A stretch of 64,000 nucleotides of DNA from Bacteroidales bacterium (GCA_016783885.1 JADHVR010000002.1:3628-67627); one strand, 5' to 3'; shown: positions 7,002 to 64,000, counted from the first letter of the stretch. Numbers and translations: made by a program. Notes: a model not told the origin generated them from the letters alone.

Positions 7002-8912
7002 ATGAAAAATCTATGTTTAATTTTATTCCTGTTTTTTACTATATCTACAATTGTAGCACAACCACCACAAGCCTTTAAATACCAGGCAGTAGTACGGGAT
7101 AACACAGGTGAAATCTTACAAAACCAGGCAGTATGTGTTCGAATTAGTATCCATGATGTTATAGCAGGCGGCACCATTGTGTACCAGGAAACCTTTACTG
7201 AAACAACAAACCAGTTTGGTTTGGTAAATCTGGAGATCGGAAATGGAATCCCAACCATCGGGATTTTTGACGGAATCGACTGGAGTACCAATTCTAAATT
7301 TATCGAAACGGAAATTGACCCTGCCGGAGGAACAACGTTTGTCTCAATTGGCACTACAGAATTATTGGCGGTTCCTTATGCTCTGTATTCAAATCGCTCA
7401 AAAGATGCAGTCTGGGGAAAATACCTTAATAGTATTTATTATAATGATGGTAACGTAGGAATAGGAACCTCAAACCCTGTAAGGAAACTTCATATCAAAG
7501 GAACCACCGGTGAAGTTGTACGGTTCGAATCAGAAGGCGCTGACAACTGGAATTCAATCTATAACTCCAATGGATATATAGGCTATTTCGGAGCATATAA
7601 TGGAGATCATGATATAGATGTTGGTACCGGTGGTGGAAATAGCCTTGGGAAATTACATCTTGTAACCAAAGCAAGTCCCAGGCTAACCATTGATGATATT
7701 GGTAATGTAGGTATCGGCACAACAAATCCGGGAGCAATGTTAGAAGTAGCCGGCCAGGTGAAAATTACCGGGGGTGATCCTGCTAACCGAAAAGCGCTCA
7801 TTACTGATGCAACAGGCTTTGCTTCATGGCAATATTCCGCAATCAACGACCTTTCAGATGGTAGAACTGATGCAATGAGTGTTTTCCTTGGTTCAGGGTC
7901 AGGTATATTAGACGATGGAAACAACGGCAATACAGCTATTGGACAAGAGTGTTTAACAAACAATACGGAGGGCTTTAATAATACCGCAAGCGGATATCAG
8001 GCCTTGTATTCCAACACGGGTGGCGATGATAATATTGCAATCGGCAGTGCGGCTTTGTATAATAATACGACGGGCAGTTATAATACCGCAAGTGGAAGGA
8101 CAACCTTGTATGACAATACAACGGGCCATGATAATAACGCTATTGGTTATAGTGCCCTGGCAAACAATACAACTGGCAATTATAATACAGCGAACGGCAG
8201 TAATGCTTTAAATAATAATTCAACAGGCAGTGGCAATATTGCGATTGGATTTCAAGCGTTGTTATTTAATACAACAGGCGAGGTAAATACGGCTTGTGGG
8301 ATGTCTGCCATGCAATCCAATACAACGGGTAGCTGGAATACCGCGTATGGACATTCAGCATTTACAAATGGTGAGAGCCATTCAAATTCCACCGCTCTTG
8401 GATTTGATGCCGAACCTGAGGCATCCAATAAAATAATTCTCGGAAACTCCAGCGTATCCTGGATAGGAGGACATTCTTACTGGTATAATACTTCTGATGC
8501 CAGGGTAAAGACTAATATTAAGGAAGATGTGAAGGGCCTGGATTTTATCATGGAATTGCGCCCGGTTACATACTATTTTGATAAAGATAAAATGGATGAA
8601 TTGACAGGAACGGTTGATTCTACCCATTACCCTGAGAAATATGATGTTGAAAAAATAAAACAAAGTGGTTTTATGGCTCAGGAAGTAGAACAAGCGGCAC
8701 AAAACTCAGGTTATGATTTTAGCGGGATCAGCAAACCAAAAGGTGATGTAAAATATTACAGTTTGGCTTATGCTCAGTTTGTCGTGCCTTTGGTGAAAGC
8801 AGTACAGGAGCAGCAGGGAACAATTGAAACACTCAAGGAAATGAATAAGGAGCAACAAACTATGATTATAGAACTAAAATCACGAATTGAAAAATTGGAA
8901 ATGAACAAATAA
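7002..8912 (+). CDS. Fibre-like secreted protein, paralog P2 (conserved N-module; 17-residue NTA-x-G/NTTG repeat shaft; tip class II, peptidase S74 intramolecular-chaperone-type C-terminus)
   Basis: 636 aa. N-module nt 7002-7403. About 8 repeats of NTAxGxxALxxNTTGxx (nt ~7929-8365). C-terminal domain from TSDARVKTNIKEDVKGLDFIMELRPVTYYFDKDK ... SGFMAQEVEQAAQNSGYDFSGI ... YYSLAYAQFVVPLVKAVQEQQ plus a coiled coil (nt 8493-8909), as in endosialidase/tail-spike chaperone domains. Confidence 0.85.
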   Translation: MKNLCLILFLFFTISTIVAQPPQAFKYQAVVRDNTGEILQNQAVCVRISIHDVIAGGTIVYQETFTETTNQFGLVNLEIGNGIPTIGIFDGIDWSTNSKFIETEIDPAGGTTFVSIGTTELLAVPYALYSNRSKDAVWGKYLNSIYYNDGNVGIGTSNPVRKLHIKGTTGEVVRFESEGADNWNSIYNSNGYIGYFGAYNGDHDIDVGTGGGNSLGKLHLVTKASPRLTIDDIGNVGIGTTNPGAMLEVAGQVKITGGDPANRKALITDATGFASWQYSAINDLSDGRTDAMSVFLGSGSGILDDGNNGNTAIGQECLTNNTEGFNNTASGYQALYSNTGGDDNIAIGSAALYNNTTGSYNTASGRTTLYDNTTGHDNNAIGYSALANNTTGNYNTANGSNALNNNSTGSGNIAIGFQALLFNTTGEVNTACGMSAMQSNTTGSWNTAYGHSAFTNGESHSNSTALGFDAEPEASNKIILGNSSVSWIGGHSYWYNTSDARVKTNIKEDVKGLDFIMELRPVTYYFDKDKMDELTGTVDSTHYPEKYDVEKIKQSGFMAQEVEQAAQNSGYDFSGISKPKGDVKYYSLAYAQFVVPLVKAVQEQQGTIETLKEMNKEQQTMIIELKSRIEKLEMNK

Positions 8913-12115: not shown

Positions 12116-14671
12116 ATGAAAAAGATAATTATTTCACTGCTGATATTAATCACTTCATCCGGGTTTTTACTCCTGGGGCAGAAATCTTCTTATGATATTT
12201 GGCTTAATTCTGAAACCGATGATTTTGAAAGCATCCGGCAAAACACTGAAGCTTATTTCGAAGGAAAATACAAGGGAAGGGGATCAGGGTATAAACAATG
12301 GAAACGTTGGGAATATTTGAACGAACGCAGGCTTTCTCCCGACGGAAAGGTCACTAACCACACATTATTGAATTGGTTAGCCTATCAGGAATACCTTGAT
12401 CAAAATCCTCAATACAAAAAGCCTGACCCAACAGATGTAGCCAACGGGTTCTGGCAATTTCTTGCACCTACGAGTTACATAAATGGTAATGGTTGGAATC
12501 CCGGTATTGGAAGGGTCAATTGTATTGCTTTTCATCCAACCGATCCATATACATTTTATATAGGCACTCCTTCGGGTGGAATATGGAAAACCTCTGAAGA
12601 AGGTGCTAACTGGACGAGCCTTTGCAATGGAATTCCCAGTATTGGTGTTTCCGGTATTGTTGTGAATCCTGCAAATCCGGATATAATTTATATCCTCACA
12701 GGCGATGGTGATGGAGGTAACACCTTTTCCATTGGAGTCTTAAAATCAATTGATGGCGGGATCTCATGGTCTGCAACAGGCCTTACGTTTGATAAAGAGG
12801 ACAAAAAAGTAGGCTATAAACTAAAAATGCACCCCACAAATTATAATATATTGTTTGCTACAACAACTGATGGTACTTATAAAACTACCGACGCAGGTGT
12901 AACATGGACTGAAGTCCATAACTGGTTGTTTTATGATATTGAATTCAAACCCGGAAATCCGTCTATCATGTATGGTTCTACAGGTTGGGGATTTTTCAGA
13001 TCAACTGATACAGGTGACACATGGACTGAAGTTACCGCTGGAGTTCCGACCAATGCATGGCGAATAGAGATCGGTGTATCACCTAATAACCCCACTTCCG
13101 TATATTTAGTTTGCGGGCCGGCTTTTGGAGATTATACTTTTGTTGGTCTTTACCGTTCATACGATAACGGGCAAAGCTTTTCTCTTATATCCGATTCGCC
13201 CAATATCCTTGGCTATGAAACTGACGGTAACGACAGTCTCCACCAGACAATGTATGACCTGGCCATAACAGTTTCAAGGACTGATTATTCAAAAATTATG
13301 GTAGGGGGGATCAATACTTGGGTATCAGATGATTATGGCAGTAACTGGACCATCACCTCCCACTGGTATGATGATAATAATCCAATCGGTTATACACATG
13401 CAGATATTCATGCATTGGAAATAAATCCCCTCAACAACCATTTGTATTGTGGTAGTGATGGCGGTATTTATAAGTCAACCGATTTCGGAAATAACTGGAC
13501 CGATCTGACTCCGGGTATTTCTAACACTCAATTTTATCGCATTGCCGGTTATGAGCCCGATGAATACCTGATTATTGGCGGCACCCAGGATAATGGCTCC
13601 AATAAATGGACAGGAGGGACATACTTCAGACACATTTTAGGTGCCGATGGTATGGATTGTATGATTGATCATACTAATCCCGATATTATGTATTACTGTG
13701 CCCAGAATGGCGGTCTTCATAAATCATACAACGGGGGTATTAATGCAACGAACATTATACCTGATACAGCTGCAATAGGTTCATGGATAACCCCCATCAT
13801 TATGAATCCTGTAGATCCCTTAATTATCTATGGTGGTTATAATGATGTTTATAAAAGCTATGACGGAGGAGAAAACTGGGTTAACCTTGGCGTAGATGGA
13901 CGTGAGGCAATGGCAATTGGCACGGATAATCCCGACAGGGTTTATGCATCGGACGGATATGATTTCAATAGCTCTCATGATGGTGGATATACCTGGTTCA
14001 ATTACAATGATAATGGCTTACCCGCTAATAGAATCAGTTTTATAGCTGTTAATCCGAATAATTCAAAGGATGTATTTGTAACAATTGGCGGATTTAACGA
14101 TGGTAAGAAAGTGTATCGTTCTACTAGTAATGGAGAATCCTTTACAAATATCACAGGCTCCCTGCCGAATGTCATCGTAAACTGCATAGCTTACGAAAAT
14201 ACAGGAGCGGACCCTGATGGTGCCGTTTATATCGGAACGGATGTAGGTGTATTCTATCGTAACAATAGCCTGGGAGATTGGATCCCTTACTCAAACTGGT
14301 TGCCCACTGTACCTGTTTTCGATCTGGAAATCAACGAAGCCAATGATTTGATTACTGCAGGAACATTTGGCCGGGGATTGTGGAGATCACCAACATATTC
14401 TCCTTGTTACGTTTCACGGACCTTAGGAGGAACAGGCCTCATCGGCTATAGTTATTACCAGGCAGAAGATTGGATTAATTCTACAAGGATCTATAACCAG
14501 GGAATTGGTCAGGAAGGTTATTATAAAGCAGGCAATACCATTCGGCTTCAGCCTGGTTTTCATGTGACCAACGGATCAAAATTCAAGGCTTTCCTGGGTC
14601 CGTGTGGGGCAGGTATTCCTACTGACCCAGGAACGAAAAATACAGAATCTGATAAGAAGAACATAGAGTGA
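12116..14671 (+). CDS. BNR/Asp-box repeat beta-propeller protein (sortilin/VPS10- or GH74-like architecture), secreted
   Basis: 851 aa with a signal peptide. Many Asp-box-like motifs: KTSEEGANWT, KSIDGGISWS, KTTDAGVTWT, RSTDTGDTWT, RSYDNGQSFS, SDDYGSNWT, KSTDFGNNWT, KSYDGGENWV, SSHDGGYTWF, RSTSNGESFT. C-terminal tail ...KAGNTIRLQPGFHVTNGSKFKAFLGPC resembles a C-terminal motif common in Bacteroidota surface proteins. Confidence 0.8.
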   Translation: MKKIIISLLILITSSGFLLLGQKSSYDIWLNSETDDFESIRQNTEAYFEGKYKGRGSGYKQWKRWEYLNERRLSPDGKVTNHTLLNWLAYQEYLDQNPQYKKPDPTDVANGFWQFLAPTSYINGNGWNPGIGRVNCIAFHPTDPYTFYIGTPSGGIWKTSEEGANWTSLCNGIPSIGVSGIVVNPANPDIIYILTGDGDGGNTFSIGVLKSIDGGISWSATGLTFDKEDKKVGYKLKMHPTNYNILFATTTDGTYKTTDAGVTWTEVHNWLFYDIEFKPGNPSIMYGSTGWGFFRSTDTGDTWTEVTAGVPTNAWRIEIGVSPNNPTSVYLVCGPAFGDYTFVGLYRSYDNGQSFSLISDSPNILGYETDGNDSLHQTMYDLAITVSRTDYSKIMVGGINTWVSDDYGSNWTITSHWYDDNNPIGYTHADIHALEINPLNNHLYCGSDGGIYKSTDFGNNWTDLTPGISNTQFYRIAGYEPDEYLIIGGTQDNGSNKWTGGTYFRHILGADGMDCMIDHTNPDIMYYCAQNGGLHKSYNGGINATNIIPDTAAIGSWITPIIMNPVDPLIIYGGYNDVYKSYDGGENWVNLGVDGREAMAIGTDNPDRVYASDGYDFNSSHDGGYTWFNYNDNGLPANRISFIAVNPNNSKDVFVTIGGFNDGKKVYRSTSNGESFTNITGSLPNVIVNCIAYENTGADPDGAVYIGTDVGVFYRNNSLGDWIPYSNWLPTVPVFDLEINEANDLITAGTFGRGLWRSPTYSPCYVSRTLGGTGLIGYSYYQAEDWINSTRIYNQGIGQEGYYKAGNTIRLQPGFHVTNGSKFKAFLGPCGAGIPTDPGTKNTESDKKNIE

Positions 14672-61687: not shown

Positions 61688-61930
61688 ATGAAATATACAA
61701 TATTATATGAAAAAATTGAAGAGCAGGATTTCCCGGAGGATTATTATTATGCTTATGTTCCTTCTTTAGGTTTAACCACTCATGGATTAGGGCTTGAAGG
61801 AGCCAAAAACGCCATGAATGATTTATTAACATTATGGGTTGAGGAGAAAAAAGCAAATGGTGAAGTCATTAAGAAAGAAAATGAGTCATATATTTCTTCA
61901 ATAGAATTGGAAGATGCCTTATTCATCTAA
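61688..61930 (+). CDS. hicB: HicB-like antitoxin (UPF0150 fold, no obvious DNA-binding extension)
   Basis: 80 aa from ATG 61688. MKYTILYEKIEEQDFPEDYYYAYVPSLGLTTHGLGLEGAKNAMNDLLTLWVEEKKANGEVI follows the HicB N-domain pattern. Confidence 0.6.
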   Translation: MKYTILYEKIEEQDFPEDYYYAYVPSLGLTTHGLGLEGAKNAMNDLLTLWVEEKKANGEVIKKENESYISSIELEDALFI

Positions 61931-61982
61931 AGAAGTCCTTAGAAAATTACAGAAGGCTGGATTTGTCACCCCTGCACCTTGA
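61914..61982 (+). pseudogene. HicA-like toxin remnant (N-terminal ~17 codons only, then premature stop)
   Basis: ATG 61914 overlaps the hicB 3' end. MPYSSKEVLRKLQKAGF is the usual HicA N-terminus, but the frame stops at 61980-61982. A shifted frame gives only a weak resemblance (..VRHRDLQSNLIQKYF..) to a HicA C-terminus. Confidence 0.45.
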
Positions 61983-61999
61983 AGTTTGTAACTTCAAGG
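61977..61999. repeat. Perfect palindrome CCTTGAAGTT-tgt-AACTTCAAGG
   Basis: 10-bp arms with a 3-nt loop. Shares the AGTT-nnn-AACT core with the palindrome at 62066-62088. Sits exactly where the hicA-like frame breaks. Confidence 0.8.
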
Positions 62000-62065
62000 A
62001 CGTTAGACACCGGGATTTACAATCCAATTTAATACAAAAATATTTTGCAATTAAAAATTTCAGGT

Positions 62066-62088
62066 GGCTGCCTGCATTTCAGTTGCAA
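62066..62088. repeat. Perfect palindrome CATTTCAGTT-gca-AACTGAAATG
   Basis: 10-bp arms with a 3-nt loop, the same architecture as 61977-61999. Confidence 0.8.
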
Positions 62089-62149
62089 ACTGAAATGAGC
62101 AAAGGGGTTAATTTTTTTTAATGGATTTTAATAAGATTTTAGAAAAACA

Positions 62150-62180
62150 AAAAACCTCGATCAATTTGATCGGGGTTTTT
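62150..62180 (-). terminator. Bidirectional-looking Rho-independent terminator downstream of the repeat-protein gene
   Basis: aaaaaCCTCGATC-aattt-GATCGGGGttttt, with A-run and T-run flanks on both strands. Confidence 0.7.
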
Positions 62181-62193
62181 GCTCTAATAACTT

Positions 62194-64000
62194 TTAACAT
62201 CCAAGAAAATCTTCCCAACTTATCCAACCTTTGTTTTTAAATTTCCTTTCGGGGTTACAAGTCAGTCCCAGATCCTCAAGGTAACGTTTATGTAAATGGT
62301 ATTCTTTTCGAGATTTGATTTTTAATTTATGAGCAGCATTTTTTGCTTCTTCGTATGTAGAATATTTATTTGGGGCTTCAATCCCAAAGAAATCATAAAA
62401 ATCTATCCAACCTTTATTTTCGTATTTCATTGCAGGTGTACTTGGTAAGCGTGGATCTTTTTTATATAACTTTTTATATTTTACCCCTGATTTTATCCCT
62501 AATTTTTGAACCGCTTGCTTTGCCTCTTCATAAGTTGGATAAATATCAACAGGTACTGTACCTAAAAAATAGTACCAATCCTTCCAGCCTTTTGATTTAT
62601 ATAATTTATCAGGAGAACTCGGTAACTTAGGGTCTTTTTTATACTTCTTCTTATCATGATAATGATGTCTGTTTTTTATACCTAAGCTCTGTGCTGCTTT
62701 TTGTGCTTCTTGATAAGTTGTATAATACTCAGGTTTTTTTACATTACAAAGGTCATAAAATGTTTTCCAGCCCTTATTTCTATAACTCTCACTTGGCGAA
62801 CTTGGCAACCTTGGGTCTTCGCTTCGACGACTTTTATATTCTTTCATTGATTGAATGTTCAACCTTTGTACAGCCATTTTTGCTTCCTGATAAGTTGTAT
62901 AAATATTTGGAGCTTTTGTTCCTAAGAAATTATACCAATTTGTCCATCCTTTATTTCTAAAAGTTTTCTCTGGATTACTTGGTAGTAAAGTATCTTCTTT
63001 GTATCGTTTGTATTTAAGATAATCAGTTCTTGTTTTAATTTCCAATCCTTGAACAGCTTCTCTCGCTTCTTCATAGCTTAGGTAATAGATTATAATAAAC
63101 TCATCCCATTTTGTCCATCCTTTATTTTTATAATATTTATCAGGCTGACTTGGTAACTTAGGATCTGCTCTATAACGCTTTTGTTCAATATATTCTTTTC
63201 TTGATTTTATACCTGTTTCTTGGACAGCTTTCTTTGCTTCTTCATAGGTTTCATAAAATATTAGGGGAGGTACTTCTAAAAAATTATAATAGTCTATCCA
63301 ACCGATGCCCTTATATACATTTTCAGGTCTACTTGGTAGCTTTGGATCATCCTTATATTTTTCGAGATATTCTTTTCTTGTATTAACAGATAATAATCTT
63401 GTGGCTTTTTTCGCTTTATCATATGTTAAATATGCATCCGGCCTATTTTTATTGAAAAAATCATAATTATCAATCCAACCTTTATTATTATAATATCGTG
63501 CAGGAGTAGATGGAAGCCTAACGTCCTCTTTACGCCCTAAACGATATTCTTTTTCAGATGTTATATTTAGTTTCAAAACGGCTTGTTTTGCTTCATCATA
63601 AGTGGGATAAATGATAATTTTATTTATTCCCAGAAATTCAAAAAAATTAACCCAACCTTTATTTTTGTATGTTTCTTGAGGATTGTAAGGAAGCCTCGGA
63701 TCTTCATTATGACGCTTTTTATAAGATTTATAAGATTTTATGCTTAATGTTCGCACAGCATTTTTAGCTTCCTCATACGTTGGGTAATTTGAAATGTCTT
63801 TTGTTCCAAAATAGTCATTCCAGTCTATCCAACCATTATTTTTATAGGTTCTGTCAGGTTGACTTGGCAATTTCGGATTTTCTTTATAATGTTGCTTATA
63901 TTCTATAAGAGATTTAATACCAAGTTTTTGCGTTGCATTTTTAGCTTCGTTATATGTTGGGTAAAAATTTGGCATTTCAGTTCCAAGAAAATTATACCAA
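62194..64000 (-). CDS. Tandem-repeat protein built from at least 10 copies of a ~59-aa 'integrase-repeat'-like unit (5' end outside the window)
   Basis: Each unit reads Y-x-T-Y-E-E-A-K-x-A-V-x-x-L-x-I-K-S-x-x-x-Y...DP(R/K)LPS-x-P...Y-K-N-K-G-W-x-x-(W/F)-x-x-F-L-G. The frame stays open past the annotated Met to the window edge (...WYNFLGTE-MPNFYPTY). That Met sits in a normal inter-repeat linker, so the gene continues beyond 64000. Lys/Arg/Tyr-rich, no signal peptide. Confidence 0.8.
   Translation of the reverse strand, partial: WYNFLGTEMPNFYPTYNEAKNATQKLGIKSLIEYKQHYKENPKLPSQPDRTYKNNGWIDWNDYFGTKDISNYPTYEEAKNAVRTLSIKSYKSYKKRHNEDPRLPYNPQETYKNKGWVNFFEFLGINKIIIYPTYDEAKQAVLKLNITSEKEYRLGRKEDVRLPSTPARYYNNKGWIDNYDFFNKNRPDAYLTYDKAKKATRLLSVNTRKEYLEKYKDDPKLPSRPENVYKGIGWIDYYNFLEVPPLIFYETYEEAKKAVQETGIKSRKEYIEQKRYRADPKLPSQPDKYYKNKGWTKWDEFIIIYYLSYEEAREAVQGLEIKTRTDYLKYKRYKEDTLLPSNPEKTFRNKGWTNWYNFLGTKAPNIYTTYQEAKMAVQRLNIQSMKEYKSRRSEDPRLPSSPSESYRNKGWKTFYDLCNVKKPEYYTTYQEAQKAAQSLGIKNRHHYHDKKKYKKDPKLPSSPDKLYKSKGWKDWYYFLGTVPVDIYPTYEEAKQAVQKLGIKSGVKYKKLYKKDPRLPSTPAMKYENKGWIDFYDFFGIEAPNKYSTYEEAKNAAHKLKIKSRKEYHLHKRYLEDLGLTCNPERKFKNKGWISWEDFLGC

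Follow-up and report, generated by a model that had tools for sequence, protein, structure and literature searches.

The gene at the right edge of the analysed DNA encodes a single chain in which a predicted Mrr-type PD-(D/E)xK nuclease and an SF2 ATPase are followed by 11 INT_rpt units. We put the chance at slightly better than even that this single gene encodes a restriction-like enzyme, driven by ATP and aimed at incoming DNA by its repeat array. The repeat is catalogued and the nuclease–motor–reader plan is known; judged from the sequence, what is new is an INT_rpt array as the candidate reader.

Gene extent and domain organization

The window, a stretch of 64,000 nucleotides from a Bacteroidales bacterium (G000:C104:3628-67627), contains the 3′ part of the gene. 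An open frame on the minus strand has its stop codon at 62194-62196 and is still open at the window edge; by the frame and the Pfam matches, this part (62194..64000, minus strand) comprises the tail of unit 1, units 2 to 11 and the stop codon. The contig continues past the right edge, and the whole gene occupies G000:C104:65821-69546 (1,241 aa), with its start about 1,920 bases beyond the window. An alternative in-frame ATG 36 bases further upstream gives 1,253 aa (P0001) in a frame of 1,258 codons from stop to stop; the second ATG, that of the 1,241-aa form, is the start used by most orthologues. The array accounts for 648 of the 1,241-1,253 residues and spans residues 606-1253 of P0001. A preliminary description of the window had seen a gene composed almost entirely of repeats with no catalytic domain, and it had this appearance because the window edge cuts the gene. 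Extending the contig to the N-terminus reveals attached enzymatic domains, so the protein is no catalytic-free scaffold; a repeat-only scaffold is ruled out by an N-terminal half that is a predicted enzyme. The ten complete units and the tail of an eleventh counted in that description hold for the window, and the array of the whole gene has exactly 11 units.

An assembly artefact is unlikely, given units 49-68% alike in DNA, one contig that spans the gene and 16 other family proteins with 11 units. In run X1, which may be the source of the DNA, a single contig crosses the whole gene with 0 differences and at a depth equal to that of the flanks; two overlapping contigs of run X6, which may also be a source, cover it likewise. 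It is the only INT_rpt gene detected in genome G000.

The INT_rpt array

Pfam PF14882 (INT_rpt) matches the in-window frame in 10 stretches with E=1.3e-76 and 253 bits (gathering cut-off 26.5), which bears out the earlier assignment to an integrase repeat. The family is the Integrase repeat unit, formerly PHINT_rpt, and the NCBI name 'integrase repeat-containing protein' is also borne by the orthologue P0012 (64% identical). All units lie on the minus strand. Unit 1 is present in the window as its tail (63964..64000), its first 140 bases being outside (full unit G000:C104:67591-67767), and it is followed by units 2 (63787..63963), 3 (63610..63786), 4 (63433..63609) and 5 (63256..63432). Unit 6 (63085..63255) has a 2-aa insert in helix 2 and a short linker, and 2-aa inserts are also found in units 7 (62902..63084), 9 (62542..62724) and 11 (62197..62364), the last forming the C-terminal end of the protein; units 8 (62725..62901) and 10 (62365..62541) complete the array. 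The units are 56-61 aa long, with pairwise amino-acid identities of 36-61% (mean 47%) and unit-to-unit nucleotide identities of 49-68% (mean 59%). The array is very basic and Tyr-rich, as had been noticed from the window, with a pI of 9.6, 10% Tyr and 128 K+R versus 80 D+E (net charge +48). The dN/dS of the array against five orthologous genes is 0.16-0.25 in four comparisons, the fifth being saturated. Thus, the array is old and maintained under purifying selection, in agreement with the earlier remark that the units have diverged in DNA while the array is kept. PHROGs gave no match for the array.

The nuclease–ATPase half

Both enzymatic domains are encoded on the minus strand beyond the window. 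Mrr_cat (PF04471, E=5.9e-9, above the cut-off) covers residues 52-146 of P0001 (G000:C104:69145-69429), where E60, D83, D87, Q103 and K105 form the pattern E..D-x-G-x-D..Q-x-K. The SF2 ATPase consists of a ResIII part (PF04851, E=1.7e-19, above the cut-off) at residues 186-333 (G000:C104:68584-69027) and a Helicase_C part (PF00271, E=1.4e-14, above the cut-off) at residues 418-532 (G000:C104:67987-68331), and its motifs are all present: the Q motif, the Walker A lysine K218, the DEAH box and motifs III, V and VI. Among the best 120 of 200 homologues, P0001 and 41 proteins that are 49-84% identical combine INT_rpt with this motor and constitute the family, beyond which identity drops to about 30%. 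In the alignment of these 42 rows (A1), in which gaps at catalytic residues reflect N-terminally incomplete entries, D83, D87, Q103 and K218 are kept in 40 of the 42, as is K105; E60 is kept in 39 and the D, E and H of the DExH box in 41, while the arginines of motif VI are present in all 42. Against the five orthologous genes, the dN/dS of the motor is 0.09-0.30 in four comparisons and saturated in the fifth.

No integrase domain matches the whole protein in Pfam at E<=0.1, and no methyltransferase in Pfam, PADLOC 2.0 or NCBIfam; NCBIfam at E<=0.01 gives no integrase and only partial motor and nuclease matches, all far below the cut-off. An integrase fusion was rejected on the same grounds: the chain has no Integrase_2 or Phage_integrase domain, whereas the control P0123 scores. 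In place of the standard tyrosine recombinase that the upstream part might have encoded, it encodes the nuclease and the SF2 ATPase. PADLOC 2.0 gives no full-length system match, only partial motor or nuclease matches and none for the array; the best is PbeA (E=9e-27, residues 262-551). A PLD nuclease, a DUF3427/SRA reader and HA repeats have no Pfam match anywhere in the protein.

Five short family members lack a scored array, and none of them (P0269-P0273) gives evidence of a natural repeat-free form. P0271 and P0272 stop within or after unit 1, and P0273 diverges ahead of motif VI as if out of frame. The terminal peptides of P0269 and P0270 are, we assume, sequencing-adapter read-through.

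Fold and shape of the array

The AlphaFold model of residues 13-1197 has a pLDDT of 86 and a pTM of 0.55, and a two-unit model (pLDDT 94.7, pTM 0.62) shows four helices per unit. The unit has no significant PDB match by sequence, by Foldseek (best E 1.4) or by VIA-align (best Z 3.1); the absence of a match does not make the fold new. FF and LOTUS domains are among the weak fold matches (Z 2.0-2.8, not significant). In BFVD, giant-virus SF2 helicases appear to carry a structurally similar repeat (TM 0.41-0.50, rmsd 7-8.5 Å). The Bodo saltans virus helicase reaches E=4e-4 and is the one among the five that passes E<=0.001; matches from Terrestrivirus, Klosneuvirus, Marseillevirus LCMAC102 and Catovirus are weaker. 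In these models, such values are expected if the units match but their arrangement differs.

Covariation was compared within and between units in 1,319 adjacent unit pairs. The coupling of helix 1 to helix 4 (columns 8-50) has z values of 4.6/5.1 within the unit versus 1.6/1.7 between units, and the between-unit covariation mostly mirrors within-unit pairs. The spacing in adjacent unit pairs ranges from 51 to 74 aa. Taken together, the within-unit covariation, the variable spacing and the geometry of the giant-virus matches favour separately folded beads on a string rather than a solenoid. On the earlier question of whether a solenoid forms, the model and the covariation lean towards beads.

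Unit order and variable positions

To compare unit order, we used 16 full-length 11-unit proteins (P0001 and 15 orthologues, with motors 47-83% identical). Units at the same array position are 61% identical versus 46% at other positions, and the best match of a unit is at the same position in 2,069 of the 2,640 comparisons. Colinear units were also assigned in nine proteins outside profile building; P0018 has two uncertain calls, and most of the other eight are shorter and probably contig-edge pieces. A tenth held-out protein, P0024, is partly colinear. A second clade of 16 proteins (P0020, P0023, P0027, P0029-P0038, P0040, P0041 and P0043) has 3-10 units and no colinearity; near-identical helix-2 motifs recur in it, and together these features suggest ongoing array turnover. 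Two members of this clade are source-named Candidatus Brocadiaceae / Anammoxibacter.

Because shared ancestry alone raises same-position identity, the comparison was made between the columns of the repeat. Column 19, where helix 2 begins, varies more than any other in the wider family (4.0 bits); among the 16 orthologues, its identity is 70% at the same position versus 14% between positions. Column 48, at the start of helix 4, scores like column 19, followed by columns 35, 38 and 39 at helix 3; the top two stand at z of about 2.5 among 33 columns. In the 11 columns with a between-position identity of <=20%, same-position identity is 45-70% in the seven columns at helices 2 and 3 versus 26-34% in the four at helix 1 (p=0.005, with post hoc grouping). 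The most variable repeat positions are thus conserved per array position, as would be expected of a modular reader, a pattern that fixed packing against neighbouring units could also cause. A search for a covariation code linking column 19 to columns 35-39 was negative, z being at most 1.5 across 1,173 non-family units.

INT_rpt in other proteins and relatives of the motor

The array matches 3,961 cluster representatives (50% identity) at E<=0.001. The best 150 matches, in a ranking that favours long arrays, include 147 new proteins; these have up to 17 units, with at least 5 in 146 and at least 10 in 39. Thus, long arrays are ordinary for INT_rpt, and the earlier expectation of one or a few copies does not hold. 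The partners were classified by clustering the non-repeat parts of these proteins, with labels checked on samples. In 62 of the 147, some of which will be contig fragments, there is no other stretch of at least 60 aa, so the repeat apparently need not serve an enzyme. The array precedes a GmtZ-type integrase at the N-terminus in 30 proteins, and 27 are grouped with SF2 helicases; three have a different C-terminal part in common, which gave a score in one of them and is SNF2-like there, and the remaining proteins form small groups. All fusion partners that could be named are DNA-acting enzymes, including GmtZ integrases, other SF2 ATPases and a TnsA-like nuclease. The last is found in P0188, where Pfam identifies a TnsA-like domain fused to the array; the C-terminal domains of P0186 and P0265 resemble PD-(D/E)xK nucleases by eye and have no Pfam match. 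An Atlas cluster couples INT_rpt with the exonuclease I C-terminal domain in 28% of its members. Among annotated phages and plasmids, INT_rpt occurs in 1 and 14 records, respectively, six of the latter being named 'VPA1269 family protein'.

A FastTree phylogeny of 91 helicase cores with a midpoint root (10 of 101 rows were dropped when the motif pattern failed) places the family beside a sister group of mostly HA-repeat helicases (SH-like support 0.999). The remaining INT_rpt helicases fall on four other branches, including a Mrr_cat_2 group that resembles Type ISP. The sister-group proteins carry HA repeats in the place of the array, and some also have Mrr_cat. For example, P0044 is alike in layout and length, with Mrr_cat, the sister SF2 motor and about eleven HA repeats (10 scored stretches), and its repeat is unrelated. 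INT_rpt as a remote HA homologue found no support, with an hhalign probability of <2%. The pattern is most simply explained by a swapping of unrelated repeats behind motors that are themselves related. The HA repeat is reported to bind DNA (PMC12191111).

Viral contigs searched with single-protein patterns gave no relative, and a metagenome scan gave distant helicases only (27-34% identity) and no family neighbourhood. In the literature searched, which leaves out most subscription journals and all supplements, we found no function for any INT_rpt protein, and our searches found no solved structure; in the accessible texts, PF14882 or PHINT_rpt appears as a table row. The available part of the GMT preprint describes GmtZ (VPA1269) as an integrase and leaves the protein repeat undiscussed.

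Genomic context

The gene stands alone, flanked by a dispersed repeat on one side and by a yfcC-like transporter gene on the other. The intergenic repeat of ~140 bp (61969..62108, unstranded) occurs at 29 sites, spread over 23 contigs, in this genome, and a palindromic insert is often nested within it. The repeat ends just where hicA is broken, of which the first 18 codons remain (61914..61968, plus strand), and upstream lies a hicB-like gene of 80 aa (61688..61930, plus strand; UPF0150 E=0.008, below the cut-off). In G023, the genome of a close relative, the hicB-like gene is followed by the intact HicA orthologue of 68 aa (HicA_toxin E=7e-20) and then psd, which confirms the decayed toxin–antitoxin locus proposed next to the array. 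The flanks of G023 are 94-95% identical, and copies of the dispersed repeat lie after its hicA and upstream of its yfcC. The repeat may be a rearrangement point, since its end lies at the hicA break and G023 has copies at both places. Upstream of the shared yfcC leader, G023 offers only 41 bp and the repeat copy before the contig ends. Directly after the stop codon of our gene, at 62149-62181, a hairpin between A and T runs is terminator-like in both directions.

The slot upstream of yfcC was inspected at the loci of 19 relatives, and the gene is absent from all of them within up to 1.5 kb (four have <1.2 kb upstream). The slot is variable in these loci (L015-L033): by labels partly assigned by eye, it holds a metallophosphoesterase, a PIN toxin–antitoxin pair, a lone antitoxin-like gene, an IS-like gene or T9SS-type cargo. 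Beyond the metallophosphoesterase, a peptidase C69 gene is found in G008 and G024. Of 29 genomes of the genus, 10 of them at least 90% complete, only one has the gene; this, with the intact hicBA and the absence of the gene upstream of yfcC in G023, agrees with the accessory context suggested before. INT_rpt is found in 3 of 401 genomes of the order, this one included. When species genomes were scanned with exact patterns, four loci emerged, in Prolixibacteraceae, Bacillota, an uncultured bacterium and Bacteroidales.

In G328, a single contig and the only one of eight genomes of its family with the gene, the gene occupies the place that an AAA_15 ATPase and a DUF3226-type partner take in two of four congeners. 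The orthologous gene in G328 (L048) is bordered on one side by an AAA_15/AAA_21 ATPase of which the first 35 codons are present (8760-8865) and on the other by the 3′ end of a TPR/HTH regulator gene (12790-12922). Among the congeners, both the ATPase and its DUF3226-type partner are present in G430, which has an additional IS-like element, and in G433, where the ATPase is split; G431 and G432 have neither gene in that slot. G328 also misses about 15 kb of secreted-protein genes at this place.

Over five loci, with neighbours judged by how their sequences begin and by partial scanning against Pfam, the gene lies in slots used by toxin–antitoxin or AAA_15/DUF3226 pairs at three, and truncated neighbour genes are present at three (the L010 fragment judged by eye). 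L010 has DUF4160/DUF2442 and Bro-N neighbours, and L012 has none of that kind. No methyltransferase was found in the open frames beside the gene at the five loci (about 200-300 bp on each side in L011), and no recombinase was seen adjacent to it. A common insertion site or shared ends were looked for and not found: the five loci share no flanking gene, terminal repeats or flanking DNA beyond the last codons of the gene itself. Most neighbours are housekeeping or secreted-protein genes, and the gene does not lie in a defence island. Further along the contig, G000:C104:81287-93890 holds about eight co-oriented secreted proteins whose C-terminal tails are of the T9SS type and almost the same in sequence; a CHAT/TPR-like gene comes next (labels by eye).

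Comparison with known systems

In domain order the protein resembles SauUSI and the Type ISP enzymes, with the array in place of their reader, but by sequence it is a member of neither family. SauUSI (Type IV, PDB 7clg) likewise joins nuclease, SF2 ATPase and a C-terminal module in one chain without a methyltransferase, and it is the best of 8 matches in the PDB sequence search (E=1.7e-14), ahead of the repair helicases XPB and RadD, which also match the motor. However, according to PMC3874153, the nuclease of SauUSI is of the PLD type and its reader, which recognizes 5mC/5hmC, is DUF3427, whereas our protein has a Mrr-type nuclease and 11 INT_rpt units. PMC7913695 and 10.1101/2025.10.16.682607 describe how the C-terminal domain of SauUSI reads the target and starts ATP-driven translocation and cutting, and PMC3874153 adds that a Mrr-type domain by itself does not imply modification dependence. 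In the Foldseek search with the protein model, Type ISP LlaBIII and SauUSI rank first. LlaBIII/LlaGI (PDB 4xqk; E=2e-14, TM 0.25) similarly place a Mrr-type nuclease ahead of an SF2 ATPase, but our protein lacks their N6-adenine methyltransferase and TRD, its residues 606-1253 being all INT_rpt; LlaBIII is absent from the 8 PDB sequence matches, and the Mrr_cat_2 INT_rpt helicases lie on a separate branch. The HA (PF03457) helicases with Mrr_cat, ResIII and Helicase_C (P0044, P0052 and P0275) are the nearest relatives of the motor and have the same layout, although HA and INT_rpt have no profile similarity. Lastly, the GmtZ (VPA1269) integrases of Gamma-Mobile-Trio islands carry 6-17 INT_rpt units at the N-terminus; these are tyrosine recombinases, whereas here the array is C-terminal to a nuclease–ATPase.

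Discussion

The domain order, the intact catalytic motifs, the conservation of the array under purifying selection, the fixed unit order and the patchy occurrence of a lone gene are established, and from them we propose how a restriction-like enzyme would work. The 11 small basic beads would bind double-stranded DNA and jointly prefer a feature missing from the host chromosome, be it a degenerate site of some length or a base modification; a methyltransferase would be dispensable because this target is lacking in the host. Binding by the array, which by its predicted domains is the only candidate reader in the protein, would switch on the ATPase, and the motor would translocate along the DNA. 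The single Mrr-type active site would nick, so that two enzymes or repeated passes might produce double-strand breaks. Of the nucleic-acid-binding scaffold that had been suggested for the array, nucleic-acid binding is retained as the likeliest predicted role, and the scaffold without catalysis is replaced by one with a nuclease and an ATPase attached. Against restriction stand the RadD and XPB matches of the motor, the partial PADLOC and NCBIfam matches, the lack of a defence island, the 62 INT_rpt proteins with no other long stretch and the negative covariation result for column 19.

The same RadD and XPB matches would suit a repair or recombination (RadD/Hef-like) or structure-cutting (e.g. 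fork) nuclease–helicase in which the array is a non-specific DNA-binding tether for processivity or loading, as would the 3-10 units and recent-looking duplications of the second clade and the Atlas pairing with the exonuclease I domain. However, rarity and patchy gain and loss fit a housekeeping role poorly, and the 16 orthologues keep both the order of units and the residues at each array position more strictly than a sticky tail would need, which makes a tether unlikely, roughly a one-in-five prospect at most. Arrays of repeats joined to an effector commonly serve as sensors, and the array might instead sense a phage protein or RNA and release a toxic nuclease–motor in abortive infection; Tyr/Trp richness and per-position residues suit any polymeric ligand, and the FF and LOTUS resemblances, non-significant as they are, point the same way. 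The nameable fusion partners of INT_rpt are DNA enzymes, however, and its N-terminal place on GmtZ integrases is more simply explained by DNA binding, so that we regard a sensor as improbable, more so than a tether. Least probable, and in our view a distant prospect, is a selfish homing-like element whose array reads a long chromosomal site that the nuclease cuts, the gene spreading via repair. A long array could read such a site, INT_rpt is also found on integrases and a TnsA-like nuclease, and truncated genes adjoin three loci (L010 by eye), but despite colinear arrays the five loci have no flanking gene or DNA in common beyond the gene's last codons, no recombinase is adjacent, and the single-protein patterns found no viral-contig relative.

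Within the restriction-like reading that we prefer, a more specific and more speculative idea, to which we give about the same low credence as to the tether, is that INT_rpt is a modular DNA reader, a prokaryotic analogue of the zinc-finger array in which each bead recognizes one short subsite. Contacts would then be made from the starts of helices 2, 3 and 4 (columns 19-20, 35-39 and 48), the 11-unit string would read a site so long that the host lacks it, and the enzyme would restrict a conserved phage or mobile-element sequence without a methyltransferase. If true, the same code would also aim GmtZ integrases and might be reprogrammable by unit swaps.

The family places a widespread, unstudied repeat at the reader position of a restriction-type motor, and it offers a clade of fixed order, array lengths that form a natural series and a catalytic site whose residues are intact. 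The question of the INT_rpt target thereby becomes testable, as cleavage would report binding and the orthologues are ready unit variants. If the units do not read DNA singly, the gene would be one more lone defence candidate; if they do, they would constitute a new modular recognition scaffold, with a bearing on how GmtZ finds its sites.
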